Shown: in pieces, positions 2,934-51,434 of the stretch | How the letters are laid out: every line of letters begins with the position of its first letter | Numbering within the stretch: the first letter of the stretch is position 1 | Assembly (NCBI GenBank): GCA_034437735.1 | Contig: DAOTTS010000093.1 | Location: 27,705-91,704, forward strand | From: Anaerolineae bacterium | GTDB taxonomy: Bacteria > Chloroflexota > Anaerolineae > B4-G1 > SLSP01 | DNA: 64,000 nucleotides | Direction: 5' to 3' | Notes under the pieces: model-generated | Database searches by the model: none | Told to the model about the DNA's origin: nothing | Seen by the model: only the letters and a program-made list of their open reading frames with translations | Made by a program: the position numbers and the translations under genes

Positions 2934-5813
2934 ATGAGAATCCGTGCACTTTGCCACGGGATCTGTGTGCTCTTCCTATGCCTATTTGTATTCGTCCCCC
3001 AACTTAAGGCACAGGAGAGCCCACCGGATCCTGTGTTGGAACTTATGTCGCAGATGTCCCCGGAGGCGAAGGTCGGTCAGCTGGTGCTGATCTCCTTCCC
3101 CGGTACCGACGTGGGGGCCACGTCGGAGATCGGCAGCCTGATTCAGGAGTACAATATCGGTGGCGTCCTTCTAAAACCCGAAAATGGCAATTTCGGGGAA
3201 GGGCTCATTGCCTCCGTCGACGTCGTATCGATGACCTCTCAGCTTCAATCCATCCATGGGTTTGCCAAAGATCCCATAACCGCGACCTTGGACAATGAGA
3301 CCGCGGTCCCTTACAGGATATCCCATATCCCCTTGCTCATCGGCGTAGAGCCTACCAACTTCGGGACACCCCCTACCGCGTATATCTCGGGAACCTCGGC
3401 ACTCCCTACGCCACTGGCCATAGGAGCCACGTGGAAACCCGAACTCGCCACGTCGGTGGGAGCCGTGTTAGCCCAAGAACTCACAGCCCTCGGGTTTAAT
3501 CTATACCTGGGACCCGACCTCAACGTTCTTTATACTCCCCGCCCAGGCGACCCTGCGGATCTAGGGACCGCTGTATTCGGTGGGGACCCTTTCTGGGTGG
3601 GACAAATGGGGAGAGCGTACATCCAGGGACTTCACGAAGGTTCAGAGGGACGTCTACTTGTAGCACCGCGTCACCTTCCCGGGCTGGGAAGCGCAGATCG
3701 ACCTTTGAATGAAGAGGTTCCTACCGTTCAAAAACCCCTTGAGCAGCTCGAGCAGATTGAGTTGGCCCCCTTCTTCGCGGCTTCAAGCGCACTGCCGGGT
3801 GCAGACCAAGCTGCGGATGCCTTTGTGGTCACCCACATCCGATATCGAGGATTCCAGGGCAATATCCGGCAGACGACGAGACCGATCAGCCTCGACGCCC
3901 AAGCGCTGAAGCTGGTGACCAGTCTTGAGGAAGTGCAGCCGTGGCGGGAGTCCGGTGGGGTGCTGATTGCGGACAATCTGGGAATGGCTTCGGTTCACCG
4001 CTTTTATGATCCTACCGGCGTCTCGTTCAATGCTCGGCAGATCACTCAGGATGCCTTAAGTGCCGGAAACGACCTGCTGATTCTCGATCGTTTCGCGGTC
4101 GAACAGGAATGGGACCGTCACTTTGTCAACATCCGTGATACGTTGAGGTTCATGGCGTCACGATACAAGGATGATCCAGCCTTCCAGCGGGTGGTGGATA
4201 ACGCGGTCTACCGAATTCTGCAAATGAAGTTCCGTATGTATCCTACCGATTCTCTTGATACCCTTATTGCCTCCCCCGAGAAGGCGGCGGAGGCTCTGGG
4301 GCATGGAGAGCCTATCAATTCTCAAGTAGGATTGAATGCCCTCAACCTGATAAGCCCGCTGTCAGACGATCAACTCCCGCCATCCCCGCAAGCAGGTGAG
4401 TCGATTGTGATCTTCACCCAAGAGCAGAACGCCAAGATGTCACGGATCCAGGAATCTTCCTATGTATTTCTGGATCAGGACGCCATCGAACGGGTGCTGT
4501 TGCGCTTCTACGGACCGGAAGGCACCGACGTCTTAAGGCGCAACGCTATCCAATCCTTCAGCTTTGCCGATCTTCTCCTGGCTTTGGATCGAAGCCAAGG
4601 CGAACCTCAGCCCACCGTGACCCCGACGCCGATTGCAACACCGGAAGACGAAGAGGTCCAACCAACGCCGCTGTCAGCAATCGTCCTCAATGCATTGAAC
4701 GACGCGGACTGGATCATCTTTGCGCCCACCGGGCTTGATACCCAGAGAGAAAGCAGTTCATTCGCCCTCAAACGGTTCCTCGCCGAACAGGCAAACATCT
4801 TGGATGCCAAACTTGCGGTGTTGGCCTACGGGCCGCCTTACGAGCTTGATAGCACGGAGGTCAGCAAACTCGACGTCTATTATGGGCTTTTCTCAACGGG
4901 GAGCTCATTCGTCGACGCCGGAGCACGCGCGATTTTCCGCGACCTCGTCGCTCCGGGGGACTCTCCGGTCAGTATTCCCTCGCTCAACTATTTGATCTCA
5001 GATCAGACGATGCCGAATCCAGAGCAACTGGTTTCCTTCAGTTTGGTCAATGAGACAGGCGCCCCCCTTACCCCCACGGCTCAGACCAACATCCACATCG
5101 GTGACCTTATTCGATTGCGCACGGACCCTATTGTTGATCGAAATAGGCATCTCGTACCCGATGGTACGCCGGTGCAGTTCAGTCTGAGTTACCCGCAAGA
5201 GGGAATCGAGCGGGAGATTATCGCGCAGACGACCGAAGGCATTGCGGAAGCGAATGTCAATCTCGAACGCGTCGGACAGCTCAACATCACGGTCCAATCC
5301 GAGCCGGCCGTCTCCTCCATCAGGCTAGAGTTGATGATCCAAGATGACGGGGTCACGATCACTGAGATTGAGCCAACGTCAACGCCCACACCCACACCGA
5401 CGCCGACACCAACGGTCACCCCAAGTCCTACTCCCACGCCGGAGCCCACGCCGCCTGGGCCCCAGCAACTCCCAAACAAAGTCGCGATGCCCCAGCCCAG
5501 TCGGTGGCGGCTCTTTGGTTGGGGGGTAGGGGCTGTAGGATCGATGCTGACGCTCGGGTTTCTGTGGGCACGCCAACGTTCAGTGCGTTCGGAGTTAGCG
5601 CTGCGGTTGGGACTCCACGGGGCATTGGGCGGACTCTGTGGCTATATTATCATCTCTGCCGTAGCAAGATGGTGGATGCCCGCCGTGCGATACGGACTGG
5701 TTGAACACGAGTACGTTATGGGAGCGGCAGCGCTGGTCGTTGGCACGCTGACCATGTTCGTGTCCGCCATCGTGTTGACACACAACCAACAAGCAAACCC
5801 TCAGAAGTTCTAA
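2934..5813 (+). CDS. Glycoside hydrolase family 3 (NagZ or beta-glucosidase-like), membrane anchored
   Basis: It has an N-terminal signal peptide, an RBS (aggaggagg) 8 nt upstream, and GH3 motifs. The motifs are KVGQLVLISFPG, IGGVLL, LGFNLYLGPDLNV, RPGDP and RHLPGLGSADRP (KHFPGHG-like). The C-terminus carries a TPTPTPTPT linker and two predicted TM helices. Confidence 0.8.
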   Translation: MRIRALCHGICVLFLCLFVFVPQLKAQESPPDPVLELMSQMSPEAKVGQLVLISFPGTDVGATSEIGSLIQEYNIGGVLLKPENGNFGEGLIASVDVVSMTSQLQSIHGFAKDPITATLDNETAVPYRISHIPLLIGVEPTNFGTPPTAYISGTSALPTPLAIGATWKPELATSVGAVLAQELTALGFNLYLGPDLNVLYTPRPGDPADLGTAVFGGDPFWVGQMGRAYIQGLHEGSEGRLLVAPRHLPGLGSADRPLNEEVPTVQKPLEQLEQIELAPFFAASSALPGADQAADAFVVTHIRYRGFQGNIRQTTRPISLDAQALKLVTSLEEVQPWRESGGVLIADNLGMASVHRFYDPTGVSFNARQITQDALSAGNDLLILDRFAVEQEWDRHFVNIRDTLRFMASRYKDDPAFQRVVDNAVYRILQMKFRMYPTDSLDTLIASPEKAAEALGHGEPINSQVGLNALNLISPLSDDQLPPSPQAGESIVIFTQEQNAKMSRIQESSYVFLDQDAIERVLLRFYGPEGTDVLRRNAIQSFSFADLLLALDRSQGEPQPTVTPTPIATPEDEEVQPTPLSAIVLNALNDADWIIFAPTGLDTQRESSSFALKRFLAEQANILDAKLAVLAYGPPYELDSTEVSKLDVYYGLFSTGSSFVDAGARAIFRDLVAPGDSPVSIPSLNYLISDQTMPNPEQLVSFSLVNETGAPLTPTAQTNIHIGDLIRLRTDPIVDRNRHLVPDGTPVQFSLSYPQEGIEREIIAQTTEGIAEANVNLERVGQLNITVQSEPAVSSIRLELMIQDDGVTITEIEPTSTPTPTPTPTPTVTPSPTPTPEPTPPGPQQLPNKVAMPQPSRWRLFGWGVGAVGSMLTLGFLWARQRSVRSELALRLGLHGALGGLCGYIIISAVARWWMPAVRYGLVEHEYVMGAAALVVGTLTMFVSAIVLTHNQQANPQKF

Positions 5814-5825
5814 GGCTCAGGAGTC

Positions 5826-6806
5826 CTACGGCGTAATCAGCAGAGCCAATAACATCATCGCCGCAGTTGTAATCAACAAGGGGAGATTGCTACCCAGAGA
5901 TCTGCGCCATTCTTGCGACGTCAAAGCAATCGGCTGGATGGACGAGGGCAAGACCGACCGATGCAACTGAGATCGGACGGCTTCAACACTCGCCGGACGC
6001 TGGCGGGGATGCAGCGCAATAGCCGACAGAATCGCTTCCTCAACGCCGGGTGAGATATGCGCATTGATCGATCGGGGACGCACCAAGGCCTGGGGATTAA
6101 GAAACCGTTCTCTTGCAGTTGCAGGAGAACGTGCAGTTAGAAGATGATAGAACGTTGCGCCCAGCGCGTAGACGTCCGACCGTATGTCGGTATGAGCGTC
6201 ATCCCCCCCATATTGTTCGAGAGGCGTATAAGCTGCCGTGCCGTGGCCCTGAACAACAGTCACCGTTCGAGACTCATCACTGGTCATCAATTTCACAAGG
6301 CCGAAATCCACAAGCTTGATAAGCCCGGAAGGCATCAGCTTGATGTTGGAAGGTTTAATATCACGGTGCAGGATGGGGGGCTCCTGCTGGTGCATATAGG
6401 AGAGTGCGCTACAAAGCTGGTCAGCCCAATCCAGCACCTTGCTCTCTTTGAGGTACTGATCATCCTTACGGGATTCCTCGATAATCTCCCGCAGATTATG
6501 ACCGGGCACATAATCCATCACGAGATACTCCCGACCACGCTGAGAGAAATAATCCGACACCTTCGGTAGGTTAGGATGGTCGAGCCGGGCAAGGACTGAG
6601 GCCTCCTGTCGGAATTGGTCCTGAAGCTGATGAAGCAAATCGGGATCAAGATCTGGATCCGGCGCAATCTCCTTGATCGCACAGATACGCCCGGAGAGTA
6701 GGGTATCCTCGGCACGATAAACCGCACCCATGCCGCCCTGTCCGATGGGGCCTGCGATCATATACCTTTTCTTCAAGAGAGTTTGCGCTTCAAGCAGTTT
6801 GACCAT
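5826..6806 (-). CDS. Ser/Thr protein kinase (Hanks-type) with C-terminal TM anchor
   Basis: It has a glycine loop GPIGQGGMGAVYRA, a VAIK-like AIKEI, the catalytic loop HRDIKPSNIKL, a DFG motif and an APE-like motif. A C-terminal hydrophobic segment reads LLITTAAMMLLALLI. Confidence 0.85.
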   Translation of the reverse strand: MVKLLEAQTLLKKRYMIAGPIGQGGMGAVYRAEDTLLSGRICAIKEIAPDPDLDPDLLHQLQDQFRQEASVLARLDHPNLPKVSDYFSQRGREYLVMDYVPGHNLREIIEESRKDDQYLKESKVLDWADQLCSALSYMHQQEPPILHRDIKPSNIKLMPSGLIKLVDFGLVKLMTSDESRTVTVVQGHGTAAYTPLEQYGGDDAHTDIRSDVYALGATFYHLLTARSPATARERFLNPQALVRPRSINAHISPGVEEAILSAIALHPRQRPASVEAVRSQLHRSVLPSSIQPIALTSQEWRRSLGSNLPLLITTAAMMLLALLITP

Positions 6807-6824
6807 TGAGCGAATGGTAACGTG

Positions 6825-6852
6825 TTCACAGGTGTTGTCAAGATGCTATAAT
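6825..6852 (+). promoter_or_regulatory. Putative sigma70-type promoter (-35 TTCACA, 16 nt spacer, -10 TATAAT) for the FHA-wHTH gene
   Basis: TTCACA lies at 6825-6830 and TATAAT at 6847-6852. A perfect palindrome GGTTAA-CA-TTAACC sits at 6862-6875, just downstream, and may be an operator. Confidence 0.35.
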
Positions 6853-6923
6853 AAGAGCTGAGGTTAACATTAACCGCCGACAAACATAGTGGGCGGCTAA
6901 CCGAGAAAAAAGAGGAAGAATCA

Positions 6924-7628
6924 ATGACAGAGACAAATACAAACGATGCAGAGACTGCAACGCAAGATCCCAACCAGAGCGTTCCCATTCTCATCGCTTA
7001 CCAGGGTCTGTTGTCCGGCCGGCGCTGGAAGATCAAAGAGGATTCCTGCACGATGGGACGTGCCGATGATTGCGAGATCGTGATCCCCGATAGACAGATT
7101 TCTCGATATCACGCCCGCATCGAGCGCGATCCTGGCGGCTACGTCTTAAGGGATCTTGGGAGCAAAAATGGCACCTACGTCAATGGTGAATTGCTCCGAG
7201 GACAACCTTATCGCCTTCAAGATGGCGATGAAATTGAGTTGGCGACCGTGATCCAGCTGGGGTTTGTGTCCGGGGAAGCGACCTTGCCGCTGACCGGGGA
7301 TCTGGGACGTCCGGGAGGACTTCAACTCGATCAGGCAGCACGCCAGGTCTATCTAGGGCGCCAGATTCTAGATCCCCCTCTCTCTCCGCCACAGTTCCGG
7401 TTGCTCTCACTGCTTGTCGAAGCCGACGGTGACGTGGTAACACGGGAGCATTTGATTGATGAGGTCTGGCCCGATGCGGTCGGCGGTGTCACGGATCAGG
7501 CCGTCGACGCTTTGATCTATCGGCTTCGCGAACGATTGGCCGAACTCGATCCCGATCACACCTACGTGGTCACCGTCCGAGGGCATGGATTCCGGTATCA
7601 GCCTCGCCCCTTCTCGGATTTCGCATAG
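6924..7628 (+). CDS. FHA domain fused to an OmpR/PhoB-type winged-helix DNA-binding domain (one-component regulator)
   Basis: It has an RBS (aaaagaggaag). The FHA region reads GRADDCEIVIPDRQISRYHARIER...LGSKNGTYVNGE. The C-terminal region QFRLLSLLVEADGDVVTREHLIDEVWPD...VDALIYRLRERL...VRGHGFRY matches Trans_reg_C. Confidence 0.8.
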   Translation: MTETNTNDAETATQDPNQSVPILIAYQGLLSGRRWKIKEDSCTMGRADDCEIVIPDRQISRYHARIERDPGGYVLRDLGSKNGTYVNGELLRGQPYRLQDGDEIELATVIQLGFVSGEATLPLTGDLGRPGGLQLDQAARQVYLGRQILDPPLSPPQFRLLSLLVEADGDVVTREHLIDEVWPDAVGGVTDQAVDALIYRLRERLAELDPDHTYVVTVRGHGFRYQPRPFSDFA

Positions 7629-7674
7629 TCGTCGTGAATAATAACACGACGACCCTACTGATGCCGAGATAACT

Positions 7675-10035
7675 ATGAAACCGGACTTTTCAAAACATCT
7701 CCAACCCATAACGATGGTGGGAGGGCGCACGCAATCATTGGCCTTATTGGCGCTGAGTTTAGCTTTATTGACGATTCTGAGCAGTTGGCCCTTCATCGTC
7801 AACGCGTCTTTGCCGGCGGACAATGACGCTGAACTTCATATCTACCGCATCGCGGAAATCGGGTATAGCATTAATGCGGGTATCCTGTATCCAAGATGGG
7901 CGCCTGATTTCTATCATGGCTATGGTTATCCTATTTTCAACTACTATGCGCCCTTGACCTATCATCTAGGATACTGGCTTTCTCTGGGGAGGCCGCAGCT
8001 GGCGGTAGAAACCGCCAAGGTTTTGTTCATCGGTGCGCATATGTTGGGCATCCTGGGTGCTTATCAGTTGGGAAAAACCTTTGGGAGACGGGGTGGGGGA
8101 CTGCTGGGAGCGACGGCTTTTGCGTTCTCCCCCTATGTTCAATTTGTCAACCCTCACGTCCGTGGCGACCTCGCGGAGGTTGTTGCGCTGGGGATCCTGC
8201 CGTGGGTGTTATGGAGCTGGCACAGAGTATGGCAAGGCGCCGGTCTTAAGGTCGGAGTCCTGGCGATCTTATCGACGGCGGCAACGTTGCTGAGCCACAA
8301 TTTGACGGGATTGACGATGGTAGGTCTCATCGGTGGACTTTCGATATGGCACCTGATGATTCGCGGCCATCGCAACTCGTTCAGAAACGCATTACTGGTC
8401 GGCGTGACTTTTGTCCTGCTGACAGCCTTTTTCTGGTTGCCCTTCCTCTTAGAGCGACAGTATATCCAATTGGAGGACGTAACAGGCGAGGGACACTATG
8501 ACTACCGGCAGCATTTTGTCCCCTTGTCGGAACTCCTTAAACTGCTTCCCCAGCAGGACTATCGGGCAAGTGCGCCTATGGCACCCATGACCGTTGGCCC
8601 TCATATCCTGATCTTGGCCTTCATTGGATGCTTCGTTGTGCTTTCGACGCACTTCCGCACGCGCGGAGATTTACTCGATTTCATCCGTAGTGACCTTGTG
8701 TTCTTTGGCCTCGGAGCTCTTTTCAGTCTCTGGTTGACACATCGCACCAGTGCCTGGATATGGAGGCATATTCCGGGCTTTGTCTACTTCCAATTCCCCT
8801 GGCGCTTCCTGGGCCCTTTGGCTACGTTACTCGTTCCCTTGGTGGCTGGAGTGGGCGCCCTTCGAAACGGTCGACGTCGAACTTTGGTATTGGCGATAAG
8901 TATAAGTGTTCTCATTCTTTTGGGACTTTCCGGCCTCTACCCCCGATCGTGGCAATCAAGTTGGGGACCGATCGATCGTCTAGCGATTATCAAGGCAGAG
9001 ATGGCTGACCGGTGGCGCGGCACAACGTCGACCAACGATTTTGTACCCCGGAGCGTTCAGATGATCCCAGGCCCTGAAGACTCAGTCCTGGAATCTTATC
9101 GCAATCCTCCAATTGATCGGGTCAACCGACACACGCTTCCCGAGGAAACCAGCGTCCAAGTCATCCCCGATAAGCCACACGTCAACCGGCTGCGTGTGCG
9201 TGGAAACGAAGCCTTCACCTTACGGCTCTATCTCTTCGACTTCCCGGGTTGGACCGCCTATATAGATGGTCAGGAAGTTCCTACCGAGTTGGCAAATCCG
9301 GAGGGGTTTATCACCGTCGACGTACCGGCAGGTCAGCACGAGATCGCAGTCCGCTTTGAACCCACCCCGGCGCGTCGTACTGGATGGGCATTGACCGTCG
9401 CCGGGGCCATCCTCGGCCTGATTGGGATGCCTACGCTTTATCGCGCCGTTGATACCGACGATAAACTCAAGAAGACAAAAGATAGGGATCCTATCTTCAT
9501 TCCGATAGCTATCATCGGATTGTTCTTGCTGGCCAATGGCCTCGTTTTCGATCCCTATGGGTGGTTCCGCTATACCTCCGACTCAGGACAGGCTCGCCCA
9601 GCAGAGACAACTCAATATGCCGCATTTGGGAACAAGCCTGACGATGTCGAGATCCAATTATTGGGATACGATCTATCCCCCGAAGAGGTCAAACCCGATC
9701 GTACCCTGAACGTCACCCTCTATTGGATGGCAGCACGTCCCATGACCCAAACCTATCAATCCTTCGTACACATCATCGGGCCGGAGGGGGAACTCTGGGG
9801 ACAATCCGATCACCTGAATCCGGCCGGATATCCAACCGACCGTTGGTCTCTCGACCGATATATCCGAGACCGCCACCAGTTGACCCTGCAATCGGAAGCG
9901 CCTGAGGGTATCTATACACTCCACGCAGGACTTTATCTCCTTAAGGAAGACCGTCGGCTCACCATAGTTGACGCCTCTGAAGGAGATGCAGGCAATGCCG
10001 TCATCCTCTCGCAACGGCTCTCCGTAACACGCTGA
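7675..10035 (+). CDS. Polytopic membrane protein, putative GT-C fold glycosyltransferase (YfhO/PMT-like)
   Basis: It has at least 12 predicted TM helices, a long first extracytoplasmic loop with an acidic motif (ADNDAELH), and a C-terminal soluble domain. Family assignment is tentative. Confidence 0.45.
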   Translation: MKPDFSKHLQPITMVGGRTQSLALLALSLALLTILSSWPFIVNASLPADNDAELHIYRIAEIGYSINAGILYPRWAPDFYHGYGYPIFNYYAPLTYHLGYWLSLGRPQLAVETAKVLFIGAHMLGILGAYQLGKTFGRRGGGLLGATAFAFSPYVQFVNPHVRGDLAEVVALGILPWVLWSWHRVWQGAGLKVGVLAILSTAATLLSHNLTGLTMVGLIGGLSIWHLMIRGHRNSFRNALLVGVTFVLLTAFFWLPFLLERQYIQLEDVTGEGHYDYRQHFVPLSELLKLLPQQDYRASAPMAPMTVGPHILILAFIGCFVVLSTHFRTRGDLLDFIRSDLVFFGLGALFSLWLTHRTSAWIWRHIPGFVYFQFPWRFLGPLATLLVPLVAGVGALRNGRRRTLVLAISISVLILLGLSGLYPRSWQSSWGPIDRLAIIKAEMADRWRGTTSTNDFVPRSVQMIPGPEDSVLESYRNPPIDRVNRHTLPEETSVQVIPDKPHVNRLRVRGNEAFTLRLYLFDFPGWTAYIDGQEVPTELANPEGFITVDVPAGQHEIAVRFEPTPARRTGWALTVAGAILGLIGMPTLYRAVDTDDKLKKTKDRDPIFIPIAIIGLFLLANGLVFDPYGWFRYTSDSGQARPAETTQYAAFGNKPDDVEIQLLGYDLSPEEVKPDRTLNVTLYWMAARPMTQTYQSFVHIIGPEGELWGQSDHLNPAGYPTDRWSLDRYIRDRHQLTLQSEAPEGIYTLHAGLYLLKEDRRLTIVDASEGDAGNAVILSQRLSVTR

Positions 10036-22700: not shown

Positions 22701-25700
22701 CTACGAGCTGGGCAAAGTCACCTGATAGATCGTGCTGTAGGTATCCTGATAGACGACCTCCAACACCCCTTGTTGAACCAGTGCTACGAATTTTGCCTCA
22801 GCCTCTGGGATCATATAGGCGCGCTCGTACGGAGTAACAATCACATAGGAGACGTCGTAGTCATCAAGGATCTCAGCGGCCTCCACCGGGGATGACCCAT
22901 TGTAGAAATAGCGGACGTCCTGCATTCGTGATTCAACGGTCCCCGCCGGCATAGCACCGCGTTGCTGGACTTGATGCCAACGCCAGGCCGCGACCGTCGG
23001 TAATCCTGTATAAACGCTAATCCGACTCCCCCAGAGATACTCGCGGGCACCGACTGCCTCCATGATCACGGGGCTCCCCTGGACATTCTCCTGGAGCCAA
23101 CGGATTACCTGATAGTCCGCCCAGAGCGAAATATCACTGCCATGCTCGTATTGAGTTGCATATGCCATAAAAACCATGCCGTCGAGTGTGGGAGGCGCTT
23201 CCGCAGCCCATCGATCCTGTGTCTTCGCCGGGATCGCCAAGGCGGGATAAAGACCGGTCCCCAGGATAAGAAGCGACATCACGATCACAGCGACCTCTTC
23301 GACACCCACGCGCTCTGTCTTTCCACCGGTCCAACGGTGAATCATGCGCTCGACAAAGACAGCAGCGCTCAGGCCTAATAACGTCCAGACCTGATACTGA
23401 AACTTAAACACGGTGTTCATCCGTCCAATGTCACCCTGAAGCACGACAATCTCTACCATCAGACTCAAAGCAAGCGCGGAACCGACCCAAATCCACAGGA
23501 GTCTGCGCCTTTGGTTGCGTGGCGAAACGACTTGCAAGGCAGCAAAGAGCCCTAATGGGACGACAATCCATCCGATGGGAGCTTTGAATAATGCAACGGG
23601 CACACTCAAACCCAGCAGCAAGAGGGCTACCGTCACGGCGACGATCCGCCATAATTGAGGTCGATTCTCAGGTGTCTCAAAGTAGGCGAGCCATCGCAGC
23701 CCCTCATGCCACACGCCATAGATGAGCGGAACAAGAAACTGCCCCAGCATCAGGAAGAATACCCCCAAAGGCGTGCGCGTACCCTTCCAAAGCTCAAACG
23801 TCGTATAGGTCACGATATAGTTAGCGACAAAAGGTCGGAATAACAATTCCGCCCCCAAAAACAAGAGAATGGGCGTGATCAGTAAGCGCCCCACCCACGC
23901 CAATGCGGTGGTTAAGGTTACGCGCCGTTCCGAAGAGGCTCCCGTGTCCACCCGAGCAGGAGGTGATAACGTCAAAGTGGGAGCCACTCCGAGAAGAGAA
24001 CCAAACGTCATCAGCACCAGGTACGTGGGATAGTCCCAGGTATTGGTCGCGCGCAAGGCACCGGCGACCAGCACAGCAAGCCCTAGACTACTCACCGGCC
24101 TGGGAAAGAACCGTTTCCACCCCGTGCTCTTCAACCGAACCGTGCCCAGCCCCCATTGCAGGGCGATGGCAAGCGCAACGTACGTCAGCGGCAGCGCCAT
24201 CATGTGCGCGTGAAGATCCGCATAGAGGAAAGTAAACGCTGGGAACTCATTGATCGCCCCGACCTCTCCCTCGGCAAACGGAATCAACCGCGTCGCATCC
24301 CAATACCACCATTCCGGTCGGAAGTTGAGTCCATGTCCCTCGATGACGACCTTCCAAAGGCCGACGAGTGCCGACACAACCTCGGGATATCCAGGAATCA
24401 AGCTCTCAAACTCGATACCGCCCACATCGACAAAGCCCTCAAAAATCAGCTGCGCTTCCCCAAGATTGCCGAGAATCACAATCAGGACCACGCCCCAGAG
24501 CCCGGCGCGTATCGATCGCCGGTCGCCCCCACCGGCAAGATTCGAAGCGACCGTATAGGCCCCCAGTCCTGTCATAGCCAAGAGCGAAGGCACCGCCAGA
24601 TTATAAGCAATGCTGGGAACAATCCCCAGTAACTCGGTCAATCCACCAAATAGGACGAAGCCGAAGTAATAGTAATTCATTTGGCCGCCGGCAAACCAGG
24701 GATCATAGGGTGGAAACCACGTAGACTTCATCACCGCATTGAAATAAGCGAAGTCCATTGGTTTCTCGCCGCCGCTCACCGGATGCCAAAGATCAGGATT
24801 GAGGTAACGCACCCCCACCCAGGCAAGATAGAGGCCCAAGAAGATGAGCTCGATCCACAGGATCTCGCGCCATCGCGAGCGGATAAAACGCACAAACTGC
24901 CGGCGGTTAAGCCAGAGGATAGTGCCACTGACCCCCAAACCCAGGAAGAGAAGACCCGCCAGTGTCGAGCGCACGCTGGGAACGATGTGGAGACTGGCCA
25001 AAAGCCACCCGACGTAGGCCCACACGAGCAGCCCTACCACTTTGGCCAACCCATAACCCCGCACTCGGAGGGCTGGCAGCATAGCATAGAGCCAGGGAAA
25101 AGCCATCCACCCAAGTACCAGCAAGAGCCCCCACCACAGCAGGACGGACAAGGCCGAGAACCGGTTATGGAGGGCCTCTGTGTTGAAGAGGTCAGACCAG
25201 GTACCGCCGGTCGCTTGTTCAATCTGAAGCTTAGGATCCAAAAGAAGGGAATCAGCCTTTGACTCAACATCCCCAAGAATGCGATTCCGTGTCGCTTCCC
25301 GAGGCGTCATCCACTGGACATCCTCCAGAAGCGAAGGAGGCAGCTGAGCCTCGGCGAGTTCGCGTGAGTACGTGGGAGTTTTCGCAAAGATTAGCACCGT
25401 CGGATGATCGTAGACGCTAAAAGCCTCTTCAGCCAGCGGAAAAGGCACTGAGGACTTGGCCTTGTTACTGTACTTCGCATTGACAAGATGAAAGGGTATT
25501 TCCTGATCCGGGAATTGCAGAGGCCCTAAGGAAGGATAGGAGACAAACTCAGCCCGGAGTTCATAGCCCAGATCCCCGCTGAACAAGGCTCGGTAATAAG
25601 CCGTGGTCAGGGGATACCGCATCGGCAGCCGTGGAATTGAGGCGTAGAGCCGGTTAGAGGAAAGCGCGATGAAGTCAGCCTCATCGAGCCAGTCAAGGAG

Positions 25701-27719
25701 ATACTGTCGCTTCTCCTCGGTATCGTTGTCATAATTATTCATCTGACCGGTAGGACTTGAGCTCAGATCCTGATACCAATTCCAGAACGGATCCTTGCCA
25801 TCGATCCGCAAAGGCAAAGGATCGTCCCAATGTTCGTTAGCAATCACGGACGTGCGCAGCGTCACGGCTTGGCCCCGCAGGAGAGAGAGTTCGACCTTGG
25901 CATATTCGCCGGCAGAGACCCTCACCGGCGGGTCGAACGTCATCCGAAGCGATCGAACATTGGGATCGTTGAAATTCAGGGAAGCGACCGCAGGCTGCCC
26001 ATTGACCGTAACTTCGATTTCACGAGGGCCGGGCACCCCCTTGGGATCGATCTTATTGACCTGCGCGGCCTCTACCCAGACAGTATCCGCTACCTCAACG
26101 CCCCCACCCACCCCAGACGTCACGACGGAGAGTTCCGTATTTGGCCTTATGGGTATCTGCAACTGATCTTTGGTCATCAGATCCAGCGTGACCGAGGTCG
26201 GGATATTGTCGTACATCCAGCGCGAAGCCTTCACCCGGGTAACGGGCTTCAGATAAATATGCAAGAATGCCCAGGCCCATAAAGCCGTCGTCAGAAAAAT
26301 CAGAGCCGGCAAAACACAAAGGACGTAACGCCCATAGGTTCTCCACCGCGCTTTCGCCACTGTTCCACGCGCGCCAACCCGAGACCCCCATGCCAGCTCA
26401 AGTAGCAGCACGGCGGCAAAAAGCGCAAAGAACGGATAGACCGGCAGCAGATAACGCATTGATTTGACCCACTGGGTCGATTGGTAAAGAAAGAACCCCG
26501 TACTCCAAAGCCACGGAATGAGAATGCGATGGGGAAGTGTGCGCCGGACAGAATCGGTCCACATTTTAACCAAGCGCCAGCCTAACCATGCCCACCCGAT
26601 GCAGGCCGTCACGCCTAGGGGTAATCCCATTCCCCAGAAGACCATATTGCGCAGCGGGAAGAGGATCGGGGCTCTTGCCGTCCACTGATGCCCATAAGGC
26701 ACATCCTGCAACCCACTCATCAGCCTACGAATATCCTTGATCGTCGCAATCCACTGAAGGTTAGGACTGACACCAAAGAAACCGGGGCCCATAAAAGCAT
26801 AAGGCTGTGCGATCCGAAACGCGAGAGCGGCGACAATACCGCTACCTATCAGCAAGAGTATCCGACGTAACGATAATCGGAAATGCGGACCTTCTCCAGA
26901 ATCAAAATGCATAACGCCCGTCAACCCGACGATAAGCGAAAGTGGCCACACGCTGATCTTCGAAGCAACCGCTAGGCCGGTCATAAGACCGGCGAGAAGA
27001 ATCAACCCACCAGGTTTGCGCTTGCCCGCAGCCAAAACGCACAGCAAGAGCGTCCATACCACAAAGACCGTCGCAAAACTATCGACAACAAAGAAATGGG
27101 CGTGCTGAATGGGGAGCACGGCAAACGCATAAAGCCCACCGGCTAGAAGAGAGAGCCGATTGCCAAAGAGAGAGCGGGCCAGCAGGATCAATCCCAACAA
27201 CGCAGCCACATCAGCCAGCGCAGAAAGGCCCCGACCTACGTGATGAATACCGGCGTATCCGGTGTAGGTGCCCGGCAAGCAAGCACCCGCATCTGCCGGC
27301 GTTTGACCACACAACACAGCATCGGTCCAGCGCCCCACCGCTCGGGTGACGAAGATCGGCAGCGTCCCATAGACGTAATTCACAAACTGATCGTAATTCA
27401 TAGGATTGATGGGGGAATCAGCGGTATCCCAGTAGAGACGCAAGCAGGCACCGAAATCCTCACAAATCGGCGCCCCGCTCTCTGCCTTCGCCTCACCGGG
27501 AAAGCGAAGCGTCCCTGCAACCATCGTGAGGTAACGCTCGTCCGGGTGCAGGTGGGTCCCCTCCCCCCAATCCAGGTTGACAAAACGGACGAGAGCGCCA
27601 AGGACCAGCAGAACCACCAGGGCCAATCGATAGCGAACTTGTCGATTCGGTCCTTGAGGAGTACTCATTGATTGAGGATGCCTAAACGGAGATTCTGTTA
27701 TCAAATGTTGTTCGGTCAT
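22701..27719 (-). CDS. Very large (1,672 aa) polytopic membrane protein, GT-C superfamily-like (PMT/ArnT-like N-terminal module plus additional TM modules)
   Basis: The first loop reads VRFVNLDWGEGTHLHPDERYLTMV (a DE motif after TM1, as in GT39/GT83). More than 25 TM helices are predicted. The C-terminal domain is soluble. Confidence 0.7.
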   Translation of the reverse strand: MTEQHLITESPFRHPQSMSTPQGPNRQVRYRLALVVLLVLGALVRFVNLDWGEGTHLHPDERYLTMVAGTLRFPGEAKAESGAPICEDFGACLRLYWDTADSPINPMNYDQFVNYVYGTLPIFVTRAVGRWTDAVLCGQTPADAGACLPGTYTGYAGIHHVGRGLSALADVAALLGLILLARSLFGNRLSLLAGGLYAFAVLPIQHAHFFVVDSFATVFVVWTLLLCVLAAGKRKPGGLILLAGLMTGLAVASKISVWPLSLIVGLTGVMHFDSGEGPHFRLSLRRILLLIGSGIVAALAFRIAQPYAFMGPGFFGVSPNLQWIATIKDIRRLMSGLQDVPYGHQWTARAPILFPLRNMVFWGMGLPLGVTACIGWAWLGWRLVKMWTDSVRRTLPHRILIPWLWSTGFFLYQSTQWVKSMRYLLPVYPFFALFAAVLLLELAWGSRVGARGTVAKARWRTYGRYVLCVLPALIFLTTALWAWAFLHIYLKPVTRVKASRWMYDNIPTSVTLDLMTKDQLQIPIRPNTELSVVTSGVGGGVEVADTVWVEAAQVNKIDPKGVPGPREIEVTVNGQPAVASLNFNDPNVRSLRMTFDPPVRVSAGEYAKVELSLLRGQAVTLRTSVIANEHWDDPLPLRIDGKDPFWNWYQDLSSSPTGQMNNYDNDTEEKRQYLLDWLDEADFIALSSNRLYASIPRLPMRYPLTTAYYRALFSGDLGYELRAEFVSYPSLGPLQFPDQEIPFHLVNAKYSNKAKSSVPFPLAEEAFSVYDHPTVLIFAKTPTYSRELAEAQLPPSLLEDVQWMTPREATRNRILGDVESKADSLLLDPKLQIEQATGGTWSDLFNTEALHNRFSALSVLLWWGLLLVLGWMAFPWLYAMLPALRVRGYGLAKVVGLLVWAYVGWLLASLHIVPSVRSTLAGLLFLGLGVSGTILWLNRRQFVRFIRSRWREILWIELIFLGLYLAWVGVRYLNPDLWHPVSGGEKPMDFAYFNAVMKSTWFPPYDPWFAGGQMNYYYFGFVLFGGLTELLGIVPSIAYNLAVPSLLAMTGLGAYTVASNLAGGGDRRSIRAGLWGVVLIVILGNLGEAQLIFEGFVDVGGIEFESLIPGYPEVVSALVGLWKVVIEGHGLNFRPEWWYWDATRLIPFAEGEVGAINEFPAFTFLYADLHAHMMALPLTYVALAIALQWGLGTVRLKSTGWKRFFPRPVSSLGLAVLVAGALRATNTWDYPTYLVLMTFGSLLGVAPTLTLSPPARVDTGASSERRVTLTTALAWVGRLLITPILLFLGAELLFRPFVANYIVTYTTFELWKGTRTPLGVFFLMLGQFLVPLIYGVWHEGLRWLAYFETPENRPQLWRIVAVTVALLLLGLSVPVALFKAPIGWIVVPLGLFAALQVVSPRNQRRRLLWIWVGSALALSLMVEIVVLQGDIGRMNTVFKFQYQVWTLLGLSAAVFVERMIHRWTGGKTERVGVEEVAVIVMSLLILGTGLYPALAIPAKTQDRWAAEAPPTLDGMVFMAYATQYEHGSDISLWADYQVIRWLQENVQGSPVIMEAVGAREYLWGSRISVYTGLPTVAAWRWHQVQQRGAMPAGTVESRMQDVRYFYNGSSPVEAAEILDDYDVSYVIVTPYERAYMIPEAEAKFVALVQQGVLEVVYQDTYSTIYQVTLPSS

Positions 27720-29368: not shown

Positions 29369-30868
29369 TTACACCTTCGCGCTTTCCTCGTGGAGCTGCT
29401 TAGCCCTTTTGTAGAGGTCCACGTAAGCTTGAGCTGCCATCTTCCATGAGAAATCACGCTTCATCACCCGAGTTTGAAGAGCCGACCATCGCTGGGTTTG
29501 TCGGTGATCAAAGGCACGCGCTAGCACATCAGCCAGCGCTTCCGGGGTGAATGAGTCAAAACCGAATCCCGTGCCGCGTTCCGGTTGCCGAACGACATCG
29601 ATCACGACATCGCGCAGCCCTCCGGTCCGCCGAACAATTGGAACAGCACCGTATCGCATCGCGATCATAACACTCGTACTAGCAGCCTCTTCACGACTGG
29701 GCATTAGGAAAAAATCAGATCCACCATATAGACGGCGTGCCAAACGGTCATCGAAGCGATTGACAAATCGAATGTAAGGGGGATAGCGCTTTTGGAAAGC
29801 CCGCAAATCCTGAGCGTGTTCCTCGCCCCCCGTGCCAAGGAGAACAAACTGATACGTCCGCGATCGCATAAGCGTTTCCAGTGCCGGCACAAGCAACTCA
29901 ATCCCTTTGATCGGATCAAGCCGCGTTACCATACTGACGAGCGGGACATCACGATCCGTGGGTAACTGCAACTCACGCTGCAGCGCCGTTTTGTTGACCT
30001 CCCGCATATGGAGCGATGCAACATCAAAGGACTGCGCCAAAGCCGAATCGGTCGCGGGGTTCCATAGATCAGTATCAATACCGCTCAACACGCCGAAAAG
30101 CCGATCCTCGCGATCGCGCAAAATACTGCTAAGCTGACCACCGACTTCCGGCGTCGTGATCTCCTCCGCATAGGTTGGACTCAACGTACTTAGGAGATCA
30201 GAATGAGCGATACCTTGAGCCAACCAATTAACTTTGCCGGGATTCTCCACCTCAAGGTGTGGAATCTGTCCCATTCGGCCAAAATCCAGGATCAATCGCC
30301 CACACACCCCTTGGTAAGCTAAACTATGAATCGTCATCAAGGTTGCAATCTCGCCGAAGGGTTCGTGATCTCGACCGTAGATATCGATCCAAGTCGGAAT
30401 CGGGCACGTATGCCAATCGTTCACATGAATGATGTCAGGACGCCACGTCATATGAGAAACAGCCGAAATGACGGCCCGAGAGAAGAACACAAACCGCTGT
30501 GGGTCATCGTTAAACCCATAGACGTGCTCTCGATGTCCGAAGTACCGATCGTTATAAATCATATAGACCGGGACCTGCTGAGAATCAATCTCAAGTAAGT
30601 GAACGCGCTCATCCTTCGAACCCAACGGAACGGGAAAGGACATCTTAACCTTCGATTTTTGGCCCGAAGGGCTCTCATAGCGAGGAAGCATAAGCCGTAC
30701 GTCCGCACCTAGCTTCTTGAGCTCACCAGGGAGAGAACCCGCAAAATCAGCTAAGCCACCGACTTTTGAGAATGGCGTTGCCTCTGTGACGACAAATAGA
30801 ACCTTCAGTTTAGCATTCATACTTCCACCCACGAATCTCTTTGTCGGACCCCACATAGACGTGACCAA
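29369..30868 (-). CDS. glgA: Glycogen synthase (GT5, GlgA)
   Basis: It reads KVLFVVTEATPFSKVGGLADFAGSLP and has a C-terminal GT-B fold. The probable true start is the ATG at 30820 (MNAKLKVLFV). Confidence 0.9.
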   Translation of the reverse strand: MVTSMWGPTKRFVGGSMNAKLKVLFVVTEATPFSKVGGLADFAGSLPGELKKLGADVRLMLPRYESPSGQKSKVKMSFPVPLGSKDERVHLLEIDSQQVPVYMIYNDRYFGHREHVYGFNDDPQRFVFFSRAVISAVSHMTWRPDIIHVNDWHTCPIPTWIDIYGRDHEPFGEIATLMTIHSLAYQGVCGRLILDFGRMGQIPHLEVENPGKVNWLAQGIAHSDLLSTLSPTYAEEITTPEVGGQLSSILRDREDRLFGVLSGIDTDLWNPATDSALAQSFDVASLHMREVNKTALQRELQLPTDRDVPLVSMVTRLDPIKGIELLVPALETLMRSRTYQFVLLGTGGEEHAQDLRAFQKRYPPYIRFVNRFDDRLARRLYGGSDFFLMPSREEAASTSVMIAMRYGAVPIVRRTGGLRDVVIDVVRQPERGTGFGFDSFTPEALADVLARAFDHRQTQRWSALQTRVMKRDFSWKMAAQAYVDLYKRAKQLHEESAKV

Positions 30869-31037
30869 CGCTCAAACAGCACAAAGCTATTATAGCGGAA
30901 TACGACCGGACGGCAATTTGGCACAACAAAAAACCCATGCTATGATCCGAGAAGGTCGGGGTCGAATAGGCCCATTTGATTTCCTTGCGTGTCTCAAAGC
31001 TGAGCCAGCTACTCTCTATGTTATGAAGGAGTTGCGT

Positions 31038-45161: not shown

Positions 45162-45917
45162 TCATTCAGAGTCCGATTGACGTTTCTCATAATCGATGAA
45201 TCGGTAGCCCATCCCCCGCTCAGTTAGGATGTACTGCGGATTTGACGTATCCGGTTCAATCTTTTTGCGTAGGTAGTTGATGTACAGGCGCAAATAGGAG
45301 ATTTCGTCCTTATACTCATACCCCCAGACCTTAGATAGGAGTGTGCTATGGGGAACGGTCCAACCGGCATTTTCAATGAGGTGACGTAACAGACGGAACT
45401 CGGTAGGTCTTAGTTTGATACGCTCGCCATCGACGATGACCTCAGCTGTGTTAAAATCTACACTAAGGTAATCGTCGATCTCCAGGACAGAGGTATCAGG
45501 CGGTGTCAAACTCTCAAACCGCCGAAGCACCGCTCTTACTCGGCTGACCAATTCGCGAGGACTAAACGGTTTCGTCACATAATCATCAGCACCGAGATCC
45601 AATCCTCGAACTTTGTCATCCTCAGAATCACGGACCGTGAGCATAATGATCGGCACGTTAGACGTTTCGCGAATCATCCGAAGCGTCTCGAAACCATCCA
45701 TCTCCGGCATCATCACGTCGAGCAGGACGAGGTCCGGCATCTTTTCGCGCACTTGATCGAGAGCTTCTAGACCGTTGTGAGCCTCAATGACCCGAAAATC
45801 CTCCATCTCCAGGTTGATACGGACGAACCGGATGATGCGCGGCTCATCATCCACAACAAGAATCAGGGGATGAAGGCCCGAGTCACTACTCACGGATGAA
45901 GGTAACGATCTGTTCAT
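45162..45917 (-). CDS. OmpR-family two-component response regulator
   Basis: The receiver reads LILVVDDEP...[11 protein letters not shown]...ITVRD. The winged-helix domain reads [12 protein letters not shown]...[12 protein letters not shown]...GYRF. Confidence 0.9.
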
Positions 45918-48220: not shown

Positions 48221-48242
48221 AATAGGTTAGGCTTTCGAGAAT

Positions 48243-49232
48243 CTACAAATCAGACAAATTCACTTGTGTATAAATCACAGTCACATTGTCGTTGCCGCCG
48301 GCTTCATTGGCAGCTTCGACAAGCCGCAGACATGCTTCTTGGGGATCCTGCGGATCAGAAAGTATGCGCCAGATCGATGACTCCTCCATCATATTCCATA
48401 ATCCATCGCTGCACAATAACAACCGATCCCCATCTTGAAGCGCATTAGTCGTAACATCCACCTCAAGCCCATCGGTTTGACCGATAGCCCGGTAGAGCAC
48501 ATTTCTTTGCGGATGAACGAGTGCTTCTTCTTTAGAGATCTGTCCCATCTCAATAAGTCGATTTACAAAAGAGTGATCGCGGGTTAAGCGCTCAGGTGAT
48601 GACCCATTCCGCAGTAAATAGGCTCGACTGTCCCCTACGTGCCCGATAAATAGCCGACTACCAAGAACCAATCCATAGGTCAGAGTGCTCCCACTACCCG
48701 GCAACTCACGAGCAACAGCCCGGTTAGCCCGCGAAACAGCATCTCTAACCACATCAGTAAGCGAGGGTTGATCCGCCCCCCGTTCCGAGCCCAACAGCAT
48801 CGGCAAGTATATGGTCGAAATCAAATGACTGGCAGAGATCCTAAGCGCTAACGAGCTGGCCATCTCCCCCTTCTGATGCCCTCCCATACCATCCGCAACC
48901 ATGAAAAGGCCAAAAGGAGGAAGGGGTTGACCACTATCATTAGCATCATGCTGACCCGTAAAGACTAACAAAGCGTCCTCATTTTGCCCGCGGACACTCC
49001 CTACGTCGGTCAACCATCCTGATTGAAAGACCTGAGTATGCCGGAAACTCACCTGATTCGTCGATGCATGGCCGACATTCGCGGCTTCTTCTGCCTTATT
49101 GTCTTGGGGGGACGGCTCTGGTCCTACCTCAAGTTTCGACACCGGGTCTTGGGATAATGCTTCCGCCTCTTTGGCAGACGCCTCTTGATTCTTTCCGAAA
49201 AAACCACTCACCCATTCACGAATCGATGCCAT
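48243..49232 (-). CDS. PP2C-family Ser/Thr protein phosphatase
   Basis: It has the motifs GQNEDALLV, FMVADGMGGHQKGEMAS and LCSDGLW, and ends in GGNDNVTV. Confidence 0.85.
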   Translation of the reverse strand: MASIREWVSGFFGKNQEASAKEAEALSQDPVSKLEVGPEPSPQDNKAEEAANVGHASTNQVSFRHTQVFQSGWLTDVGSVRGQNEDALLVFTGQHDANDSGQPLPPFGLFMVADGMGGHQKGEMASSLALRISASHLISTIYLPMLLGSERGADQPSLTDVVRDAVSRANRAVARELPGSGSTLTYGLVLGSRLFIGHVGDSRAYLLRNGSSPERLTRDHSFVNRLIEMGQISKEEALVHPQRNVLYRAIGQTDGLEVDVTTNALQDGDRLLLCSDGLWNMMEESSIWRILSDPQDPQEACLRLVEAANEAGGNDNVTVIYTQVNLSDL

Positions 49233-49298
49233 TCATCACCTCGAACTCTAAAAAATAGCGACTCAATAACTCCGGCAAAGTCAAGCTGAACGTCAGCC

Positions 49299-51434
49299 CT
49301 AAGCTGGAATTGCGTAGACATTCCGGTCACTCGAACCAAAATAAACGACACCATCGGCGATCTTAGGCTGACCGGTTATTGGGCCATCGGTCTGATAGCG
49401 CCAACGCAGCGACCCATTGCGCGCATCAAAGCAGTAAAGCGCCCCATCAACCCCACCAACATAAACAGCGCCCTCATAAACCGTTGGAGTCCCGGTCACC
49501 TGGCCATCGGTCTCATACCGCCATACCACCCGTCCTTCGCTCTTATCCAGAGCGTAGATATTTTTATCCGCCGAACCAAAAAAGACGAGGTCCTCCCATA
49601 CAACTGCGGTTGAGGCAATGCCGCCACCCGTGCGGTATTTCCAAGCTGACCATCCTGAACGAACATCTAGTGCGTAGAAAGACCAATCAAGTGAACCGAC
49701 AAAAACGAGGCCGTCGCTGATAATAGGCGCAGCAAGAATACCGCGACGGGAGCGAAATCGCCATCGCATTTTACGATCCAACCCAAGAGCATATACCATC
49801 CCCATCTCACAACTAAAGAGGATCAAATTATCATTGACGAAAGGTTGAGACCGGATCTTGCCATCCGATGTATAATCCCAAGCTTTGCGCCCCGAATGCT
49901 GATGTATCGCATAGAGATTACGGTCATCGGAGCCAATGAAGAAGTGCCCCAGATCTGGATACGCAGAGGAGTAAACCCGCCCTTTCGTTGGCATCGTCCA
50001 TAACAGGCGCCCACTCTGGAGATCCACAGAATAAACCACATGATCTGTGGAGCCAAATACAACCATCCCATCCAGCACACAAGGCGAAGACGCAATCCCA
50101 CCCTCAGTAGGATACTTCCAGATGAAATCACCATTTTCGATATCAAGCGCATATACATTATGATCGTAGGAAGGCACGAGTAGAATATCATCGTGGAGTT
50201 GAACCGCACCGCGAACCTCATCCTCACAGGCAAACTGCCAAATCGCTTTCAGCACGCCCGTACCACCAAAAGCTTGCGTTTCGCCTTGGCTCCCTGTTCG
50301 CCCCAAACCTTTTGCCGACGAAACAGAAAGCAACGCTCTCCTAAATTCCTCTGTTGACCCCCATCGCTTGTTAATATCATATTCGAGAGCTTTCTCGATA
50401 ACATCAACCAGCTCTTTTGAGACTGTTGGGTTTGTCTTGTGAATGGGGCGTTCTGCAAAAGAAAACGGAGGCTCTAACCGAGGGTCCTGTTTGCTCAAAA
50501 TATGATGAAGGGTCGCCCCCAGGGCATAAAGATCCCCCCTGGGCTCAGCGATGCCACGGTACTGTTCGGGAGGCGAGTATCCCTCTGTGCCAATAGTTGT
50601 ACCTTTCTCACCGCTTTGAAAGAGCTTCGCAATCCCAAAGTCAACCAATCGAATGCGGTCTTGATCGTCAAGCATAATATTCGAAGGCTTCAGGTCACGA
50701 AAGATAATGGGCCTGGGTTTGTGGTTGTGAAGATACGACAAAACGTCACAAAGTTGCACAGCCCATTCAATGACCTGAGACTCAGGGAAGTAGCCCTCAG
50801 CCTCAGCAATCTTCACCTCTAGATCCTCGCCTGGCACAAACTCAATAACCAGATAACTCCTAGTCCCTTCCGTGAAAAAGTCGTAGACCTGTGGGATAGC
50901 AGGATGACTAAGCGTGGCGAGAATACTGGCTTCACGTTCGAAGTTACGAACGATCATTTGCCGGACCTGAGGATCAGACGCAGTATTGATCATCTCTTTA
51001 ACCGCACAAATCCGATTGACGCCGGGAAACCGTAAATCGCGAGCACGGTAAACCGCCCCCATGCCGCCGATCCCCACGACCCCCAAGATCTCATATCGAT
51101 CCTGCAATCTGGTTCCTGTAGGAAGCAGGCCTTCCTCAGGAGGATCGGCCTCGGCAGCAACACTGCTAGGCGAAACCTTTCGGGTCTTAATCTCCTCATC
51201 TTTTGATGTCGGTTTAGACGCTTCTGGGAATTCCACCACACGGGTCACCGACTCATTGTCCCCTTCCGCATCTGGTTCCGTGCTTTTCTCGTCAACTTGG
51301 GTATTGAGGTCCTGGGTATTGGACTCCAAGGAAAGGGGAATGTTCAAACGCTGTGACAACCCCCGCTTGCGTTTATCATCTCGCTTCTGAGAAAGATTTA
51401 TCGTGCTTTGGCTTAATTCATCCTCTGTTGACAT
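49299..51434 (-). CDS. Ser/Thr protein kinase with C-terminal PQQ-like beta-propeller repeats
   Basis: The kinase region reads GIGGMGAVYRARD, AVKEM and FRDLKPSNIML, with DFG and PPE motifs. Then come at least 7 repeats of the form VY.LD...G...W. Confidence 0.85.
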   Translation of the reverse strand: MSTEDELSQSTINLSQKRDDKRKRGLSQRLNIPLSLESNTQDLNTQVDEKSTEPDAEGDNESVTRVVEFPEASKPTSKDEEIKTRKVSPSSVAAEADPPEEGLLPTGTRLQDRYEILGVVGIGGMGAVYRARDLRFPGVNRICAVKEMINTASDPQVRQMIVRNFEREASILATLSHPAIPQVYDFFTEGTRSYLVIEFVPGEDLEVKIAEAEGYFPESQVIEWAVQLCDVLSYLHNHKPRPIIFRDLKPSNIMLDDQDRIRLVDFGIAKLFQSGEKGTTIGTEGYSPPEQYRGIAEPRGDLYALGATLHHILSKQDPRLEPPFSFAERPIHKTNPTVSKELVDVIEKALEYDINKRWGSTEEFRRALLSVSSAKGLGRTGSQGETQAFGGTGVLKAIWQFACEDEVRGAVQLHDDILLVPSYDHNVYALDIENGDFIWKYPTEGGIASSPCVLDGMVVFGSTDHVVYSVDLQSGRLLWTMPTKGRVYSSAYPDLGHFFIGSDDRNLYAIHQHSGRKAWDYTSDGKIRSQPFVNDNLILFSCEMGMVYALGLDRKMRWRFRSRRGILAAPIISDGLVFVGSLDWSFYALDVRSGWSAWKYRTGGGIASTAVVWEDLVFFGSADKNIYALDKSEGRVVWRYETDGQVTGTPTVYEGAVYVGGVDGALYCFDARNGSLRWRYQTDGPITGQPKIADGVVYFGSSDRNVYAIPA

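Follow-up and report, generated by a model that had tools for sequence, protein, structure and literature searches.

A divergent Ser/Thr kinase and FHA-winged-helix regulator form a conserved three-gene module with a NagZ-like membrane protein in Anaerolineae

In Mycobacterium tuberculosis, the kinase PknH phosphorylates the transcription factor EmbR through EmbR's FHA domain, and the output of this pathway is the expression of cell-envelope genes (PMC6213207). A gene pair of related make-up lies in the 64,000-nucleotide (64-kb) stretch of Anaerolineae DNA analysed here, which we call the window. One gene encodes a Hanks-type, tail-anchored Ser/Thr kinase of 326 amino acids (5826..6806, minus strand; Pkinase match, E 3.9e-39). 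The other, divergent from it across a 117-nt intergenic region, encodes a 234-amino-acid regulator in which an FHA domain is followed by an OmpR/PhoB-type winged helix-turn-helix (wHTH) DNA-binding domain (6924..7628, plus strand). Both reading frames were found exactly where an initial annotation, made from the letters alone, had placed them. From sequence comparison, a structural model and analogy with described systems, we consider it probable that the kinase controls an OmpR-type factor whose receiver domain has been replaced by a phosphothreonine-binding FHA domain, and that phosphorylated Thr120 (pT120) of the regulator would act as a switch by joining two regulator molecules in trans.

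The likeness to EmbR and PknH begins with gene arrangement, the gene of a Hanks-type membrane kinase adjoining that of a factor with both an OmpR-type wHTH and an FHA domain (PMC6213207), and extends to the fold, since the FHA structure of EmbR (2fez) matches the FHA domain of the regulator. EmbR, however, is a protein of 388 amino acids arranged as wHTH-BTAD-FHA, whereas the regulator has the order FHA-wHTH and no BTAD, and PknH carries an extracellular sensor domain that the kinase of the window does not have. An N-terminal FHA domain also stands in the receiver's place, before a dimeric output domain, in the FHA-GGDEF protein DgcB of Bdellovibrio bacteriovorus, whose activating ligand is its own N-terminal tail in phosphorylated form (PMC6733907; structures 6hbz, 6hc0 and 6hc1). 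DgcB differs from the regulator in having a diguanylate cyclase as output and an N-terminal phosphopeptide, where the candidate site here is in the interdomain linker, and its abstract describes no adjacent cognate kinase. EspM of Mycobacterium marinum and M. tuberculosis likewise joins an N-terminal FHA domain to a C-terminal DNA-binding domain, and it is divergent from its target gene and binds the intergenic region that the two share (PMC7002343). Unlike the regulator, EspM has another type of helix-turn-helix, a length of 363 amino acids, no known partner kinase and an FHA domain whose role is unresolved (PMC7002343).

The regulator shares its size of about 230 amino acids and its general layout with the OmpR/PhoB response regulators, in which a phospho-signal domain at the N-terminus is joined through a short flexible linker to a Trans_reg_C domain at the C-terminus. 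It differs from them in that an all-beta FHA domain takes the place of the receiver and its phospho-acceptor Asp, and in that its partner is a Ser/Thr kinase rather than a histidine kinase. In Myxococcus xanthus, sigma54 enhancer-binding proteins in which an FHA domain replaces the receiver, and through which Ser/Thr kinases act on transcription, were reportedly described by Jelsbak, Givskov and Kaiser in 2005; their output is an AAA+ sigma54 activator and not an OmpR-type wHTH. Replacement of a receiver by an FHA domain is already known for other output domains. The open-access full-text literature that was searched yielded no characterised fusion of an FHA domain at the N-terminus with an OmpR-type wHTH.

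Profile searches of the regulator placed the FHA domain at residues 42-106 (PF00498, E 7.9e-25) and Trans_reg_C at residues 152-224 (PF00486, E 2.9e-18; 66.1 bits against a cut-off of 26.2), which bears out both the domain assignment of the initial annotation and its statement that the order is the reverse of that in EmbR. The absence of a receiver domain, also claimed there, agrees with the same searches, which returned neither a Response_reg match at E<=0.01 nor a BTAD match; the canonical response regulator of the window (45162..45917) matches Response_reg at 6.8e-34. Neither the kinase nor the regulator falls in a curated NCBIfam equivalog, and the regulator is matched there by halves, with FHA-only proteins covering one and the PhoB, BaeR and RpaB models the other, which is the wHTH domain. 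Modelling with AlphaFold2 from 65 sequences of the family (mean pLDDT 84.4) gives a confident beta-sandwich at residues 22-115 (6987..7268, plus strand) and a confident OmpR-type domain at residues 131-228 (7314..7607, plus strand), the latter made up of a beta-sheet, three helices and a hairpin. The stretch between them is modelled as disordered, with pLDDT below 50 for residues 119-130. The closest structures to the FHA domain are OdhI and GarA (TMt 0.85-0.93), FhaA, EmbR and DgcB are also among the best matches, and no solved structure spanning both domains was found (TMq at most 0.40). The recognition helix of the wHTH domain is near-invariant in the family (GVTDQAxDALxxRLRERL), and the domain is 30% identical to the DNA-binding domain of the canonical response regulator.

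The residues with which an FHA domain binds phosphothreonine are intact throughout the family. All 82 sequences have every one of G45, R46, S60, H63 and N82, and with its Gly-Arg, Ser-x-x-His and Asn set on an 11-strand sandwich the domain is predicted, by its alignment and its model, to be a phosphothreonine reader. Conservation was also observed in the linker, where the motif E118-A-T120-L-P-L123 (7275..7292, plus strand) follows the family pattern [DE]-A-T-x-P-[LIV]. T120 and P122 are found in 82/82 sequences, and Leu, Ile or Val at position 123 in 80/82. FHA domains favour a hydrophobic residue at position +3 from the phosphothreonine. Because T120 is an invariant Thr with a hydrophobic residue at +3, in a disordered stretch beside the FHA domain, it is a candidate phospho-acceptor that could double as an FHA ligand. 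About five residues separate it from the last FHA strand (residues 110-115) in the model. The conserved Thr is located C-terminal to the FHA domain, and an N-terminal Thr motif of the GarA/OdhI type was not found in the regulator family, residues 1-20 being unconserved and missing from most orthologs.

The kinase has all the sequence features of a Hanks-type enzyme, namely the G-loop, catalytic Lys, HRD, Asn, DFG and activation loop. Its catalytic domain spans residues 16-276 (5979..6761, minus strand; PF00069 match and ortholog alignment), and the GQGGMG G-loop, K45, H147-R-D149, N154, D167-F-G and the activation-loop residues T181 (6264-6266) and T183 (6258-6260) show 98% conservation or more across 80 orthologs; T181 has V184 at its +3 position. 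The initial annotation had called it a membrane kinase, and the single hydrophobic segment that was found, a transmembrane (TM) helix at residues 308-326 (5829..5885, minus strand), agrees with that and serves as a C-terminal tail anchor. Orthologs are of narrow length (320-352 amino acids in the 80), and every one has a single hydrophobic C-terminal helix, which lies no more than 12 residues from the end in 75/81 and no more than 26 in all. As the protein ends 0-26 residues past the helix, there is no room for an ectodomain, and the kinase is, on this reading of its sequence, anchored in the membrane while having no extracellular sensor domain. Among curated families it matches Stk1/PknB best (NF033483, E 5.6e-61), where it scores 207.2 against a cut-off of 450 and covers only model positions 3-273 of 563, which places it outside the PASTA kinases; neither this match nor the position of the TM helix gave any sign of PASTA repeats or another ectodomain. 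It resembles PknB, PrkC and Stk1 in its kinase domain but does not have their repeats.

The FHA-wHTH architecture is not peculiar to this window but belongs to a large family that databases annotate generically. We found 2,242 regulator homologs at E<=1e-3 in a large protein collection, the best 120 of which all have the same two-domain layout (193-250 amino acids); most of these 120 are named only 'FHA domain-containing protein' and come from metagenome-assembled genomes of Anaerolineae. The DNA of the window itself belongs to a metagenome-assembled Anaerolineae genome from a microbial mat. An exhaustive HMMER scan of 1.84 billion cluster representatives gave 130 clusters at E<=1e-30, and about 80 of the best 150 matches were full-length, single-stretch proteins of 200-250 amino acids. 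In a scan with one genome per species, relatives were present in at least 531 genomes, and the best 80 were almost all labelled Anaerolineae or Anaerolineales, with single ones labelled Caldilinea, Ardenticatenia or Thermoflexia. The cultured species Caldilinea aerophila has the module too, at locus L067. Three proteins, P0188 (383 amino acids), P0191 (493) and P0135 (286), carry the FHA-wHTH unit at the C-terminal end, behind N-terminal extensions.

Across this family the regulator gene keeps its neighbour strictly. A kinase homolog lies immediately upstream and divergent in 77/77 non-redundant loci with sufficient upstream sequence, and these loci span 41-88% regulator identity. Four loci in which the kinase seemed to lie elsewhere proved to be over-extended calls of open reading frames (ORFs), and tblastn coordinates place all four kinases adjacent and divergent. 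When the flanking ORFs were clustered, only the regulator, the kinase and a gene for a GH3 membrane protein were conserved across the entire locus set; genes for S1, SmpB and CtpB were conserved in the closer clade only. Kinase, regulator and GH3 protein form a conserved three-gene module of Anaerolineae and neighbouring Chloroflexota classes, and by these sequence searches the module looks near-universal in Anaerolineae. The initial annotation had overlooked both the third gene and the missing sensor domain of the kinase.

The third gene (2934..5813, plus strand) encodes a NagZ/YbbD-like membrane protein of 959 amino acids (Glyco_hydro_3, E 1.4e-23), consisting of a signal peptide, an ectodomain of about 850 amino acids, a Pro/Thr-rich linker and about three C-terminal TM helices. 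Of 61 testable loci, 59 have it next to the kinase gene in convergent orientation; the stop-to-stop gap of these 59 has a median of -4 nt, with overlaps of up to 99 nt, and in the window it is 12 nt (5813-5826). Since the two genes lie tail to tail, their transcripts must overlap at the 3' ends. The closest solved relative of the protein is Bacillus subtilis YbbD/NagZ (E 1.2e-17), a peptidoglycan beta-N-acetylglucosaminidase. In NagZ and YbbD the motif KH(F/I)PG(H/L)Gx4D(S/T)H holds the Asp-His acid/base dyad, and an Asp acts as the nucleophile. The D-[ST]-H dyad is gone from 66/66 GH3 orthologs, in which the aligned positions hold P/S, L and E/D/N and the family consensus over the motif reads KHFPGLGSADRxLxEE. 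The nucleophile-equivalent Asp347 is kept in 55/66 orthologs and missing from 11/66, and against NF003740 the protein scores 33.6, below the cut-off of 207 for NagZ/YbbD membership. R256, E261 and Tyr904, the last of these in the C-terminal membrane domain of three helices, are invariant or nearly so, and Arg891 of that domain, which is itself kept in the family, is conserved. The sequence suggests that the GH3 protein may be a pseudo-enzyme or a receptor. Compared with the PASTA kinase systems, the module adds a relative of the peptidoglycan-fragment enzyme YbbD to the kinase, but one that has lost the NagZ dyad.

Genes for cell-envelope glycan functions surround the module (448-2714 and 7675-10035) and encode a GT2 glycosyltransferase, a CHU_C-like protein and a YfhO/PTPS-related membrane protein, a setting that fits an envelope-related regulon. 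The last of these, a polytopic PTPS_related/YfhO-like protein of 786 amino acids identified by profile match (7675..10035, plus strand), is encoded 46 nt past the regulator gene and is kept in 19 loci only, all with regulator identity of at least 59%. A terminator scan of the plus strand between the two genes found no terminator-like site. Directly 3' of the regulator stop codon, at 7630-7653, lies a hairpin with an 8-bp stem and an 8-nt loop (TCGTCGTG-AATAATAA-CACGACGA) that is not followed by a T-run; it is unlike an intrinsic terminator and may instead serve in RNA processing or stability.

When the window was aligned with five loci of 84-88% regulator identity, we found a 42-bp block at 6812..6853 that is almost invariant, while everything downstream of the regulator's TATAAT has diverged beyond alignment. 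The block holds two overlapping divergent promoters. On the minus strand, the predicted kinase promoter (6814..6841) has TTGACA at 6841-6836, a 16-nt spacer and TACCAT at 6819-6814. On the plus strand, the sigma70-like regulator promoter that the initial annotation had recognised was recovered at 6825..6852 as TTCACA, a 16-nt spacer and a TG-extended TATAAT (11/12 matches), and it is invariant among the five close relatives. In the wider family, CTTGACA-N17-TATSAT recurs on the kinase strand in 57/78 loci. The kinase mRNA is likely leaderless, because in the clade of the window only about 7 nt lie between the -10 box and the kinase ATG, with no Shine-Dalgarno sequence. In a distant clade (L057, L058, L060 and L082) the regulator gene has a -10-like box, TATATT, that stops about 7 nt short of its ATG, and the regulator mRNA is there likely to be leaderless as well.

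The initial annotation had suggested a direct route from kinase to transcription factor, and comparison gives this strong support: the pair is divergent in all 77 loci, and the catalytic residues, the activation-loop TxT and the FHA residues are all kept. We infer a switch in which the kinase would autophosphorylate at T181 and T183, the FHA domain of the regulator would dock on the phospho-kinase, and the kinase would then phosphorylate T120 in the disordered linker. Another copy of the regulator would then read pT120 in trans through its own FHA domain, and the resulting dimer would place two wHTH domains on DNA, standing in for the receiver dimerisation of OmpR/PhoB proteins. Binding in trans is preferred over binding in cis, since T120 follows the end of the FHA domain by only about five residues. 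The switch would be reset by a PP2C phosphatase whose gene lies outside the module; one of 329 amino acids is encoded in the window at 48243..49232 (minus strand) and could serve. As the kinase has no sensor, its input must come from a partner, probably a membrane protein, and the NagZ-like GH3 protein is the leading candidate. A further reading makes the three genes a new envelope sensor, in which the GH3 protein, as a non-catalytic or slow glycan receptor, would bind cell-wall fragments and signal within the membrane to the tail-anchored, sensorless kinase, which would in turn drive the pT120 dimer; this extension is tentative, and we think it rather unlikely as a whole.

Several observations weigh against the pT120 switch. 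No DNA target was found: k-mer searches and anchored alignments of the kinase/regulator intergenic regions for a family-wide operator gave only CTTGACA and TATSAT, which amounts to the sigma70 promoter of the kinase, so that the family-wide elements are indistinguishable from a -35/-10 pair. The promoter spacers are clade-specific and vary between clades in spite of an invariant recognition helix. The conservation of T120 could have a cause other than phosphorylation. On DNA, OmpR-type domains usually occupy tandem repeats in head-to-tail order; a reciprocal dimer of FHA domains and phosphothreonines would by contrast be symmetric, and reconciling the two would need a flexible linker, for which only about 10 residues are available. 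The module itself contains no phosphatase gene. As for the GH3 gene, it is convergent and not co-transcribed with the kinase gene, and in 2/61 loci it does not lie beside it.

The same evidence can be read in other ways. A membrane-anchored kinase with a kept pair of activation-loop Thr residues, an intact FHA pocket and strict co-inheritance would fit equally well if the FHA domain served to tether the regulator to the autophosphorylated kinase, so that it would be taken off DNA while the kinase is active, or set free once the kinase is dephosphorylated; phosphorylation of the regulator would be unnecessary, and T120 would be conserved for another reason. We regard such sequestration as possible but doubtful. 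It leaves the invariant T-x-P-[LIV] of a disordered linker unexplained, and known FHA partners of bacterial kinases, EmbR and GarA among them, are themselves phosphorylated (PMC6213207). The two closest matches of the FHA domain in sequence and structure, OdhI and GarA, use a phosphothreonine of their own, which raises the prospect that pT120 folds back onto the FHA domain of the same molecule and turns the monomer off or on. This intramolecular switch appears improbable. In an FHA domain the phosphothreonine site and the termini sit at opposite ends of the sandwich, so that binding in cis is sterically unlikely for a residue about five positions past the last strand, and the N-terminal segment, where GarA has its ETTS motif, is not conserved here.

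The adjacency of the two genes might also reflect shared regulation or genomic inertia, the regulator being controlled by other kinases such as the PQQ-propeller kinase encoded at 49299..51434. Bacterial Ser/Thr kinases are often promiscuous (PMC6213207), and the window does contain a second complete kinase, PP2C and FHA cluster, but there is little likelihood of this in view of 77/77 adjacency at loci where all flanking genes except GH3 are reshuffled, and of a tightly overlapping, conserved promoter region shared by kinase and regulator. The initial annotation had proposed that the regulator controls its own gene through the palindrome GGTTAACATTAACC, and the palindrome is indeed present at 6862..6875 in the regulator 5' leader, about 3-16 nt downstream of the predicted transcript start. 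As an operator it did not hold up. It is absent from 5/5 of the close relatives (84-88% regulator identity), despite an invariant recognition helix and a conserved promoter block, and no second exact copy was found in the 64 kb. Near-matches with up to three mismatches number 7 in the window against 3.05 expected, a count that 6 of 100 shuffles reach and hence no significant enrichment. In the predicted fold of the leader RNA the left arm, GGUUA, pairs instead with UAACC at 6898-6902, and OmpR-type domains typically bind direct repeats. Autoregulation through this palindrome is accordingly very improbable. Should the regulator bind its own promoter region, the conservation of the sequence suggests that its site should fall in the 6812-6853 block and not at the palindrome.

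Other elements of the intergenic region were considered and set aside. A structured RNA in the regulator leader was rejected, as the fold is modest (z -2.7), a search of Rfam gave no match and the sequence is not conserved in the five relatives. An imperfect direct repeat with a 10-bp period, GTGTTCACAG/GTGTTGTCAA, lies at 6822-6841 inside the conserved block; it is single-copy and confined to the clade of the window, and as an OmpR-type site it remains a mere idea. A 21-mer of the conserved block occurs once in the window. No motif common to the GH3 upstream regions and the kinase/regulator intergenic regions was found across loci, and TGTCAAG occurs in 39 intergenic regions versus 2 GH3 upstream regions. 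In the intergenic region upstream of the GH3 gene of the window, at 2709-2764, there are four exact tandem copies of A[AG]ACATA[AG]N6 with a 14-bp period, and the last of them contains the 11-mer AAACATAGTGG, of which the regulator 5' leader has an exact second copy at 6882-6892. For ARACATAR, the window has 12 occurrences where 4.8 are expected, a number reached in 0/100 shuffles, and 5 of the 12 fall within 2709-2764 and 6882-6892. The array was not seen in a relative at 88% (L003); it may be coincidental, or an array of operators specific to this genome.

Elsewhere in the window, a second and complete Ser/Thr signalling cluster occupies 46197-51434 on the minus strand. It encodes the Pkinase with a PQQ beta-propeller (711 amino acids; 49299..51434) and the PP2C phosphatase, both mentioned above, as well as a DnaJ-VWA protein of 487 amino acids and a zinc-ribbon FHA protein of 187. 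Near this cluster are the canonical receiver-OmpR response regulator (45162-45917), an unusual fusion of a PALP (PLP-dependent enzyme) domain with a receiver (579 amino acids; 51825-53564) and a hybrid receiver-HisKA-HATPase kinase (53589-54860). Three giant genes were also found, encoding a DUF2298 and PMT_2 protein of 1672 amino acids (22701-27719), a protein of 1396 amino acids with DUF11, PLD-like and Lamin-tail domains (30717-34907) and a bacterial alpha-2-macroglobulin of 2016 amino acids (37881-43931).

Most of what is known of transcription control by bacterial Ser/Thr kinases concerns ordinary regulators that they phosphorylate promiscuously, or else EmbR. The family described here resembles instead a dedicated pair of one kinase and one regulator, with the layout of a two-component system built on phosphothreonine/FHA chemistry. 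What it adds to the systems already known is a strictly kept module of three genes, a kinase with no sensor and a NagZ-like partner that lacks the dyad. Such a compact and orthogonal pair of kinase and transcription factor would also be of use in synthetic biology. Anaerolineae are an abundant and poorly studied filamentous group of sludge, sediments and microbial mats, and the constant presence of a NagZ-like surface protein beside the kinase points to control of the cell envelope. If the envelope-sensor reading were true, the module would take over in these bacteria the functions of both PASTA-kinase sensing and two-component phosphotransfer.

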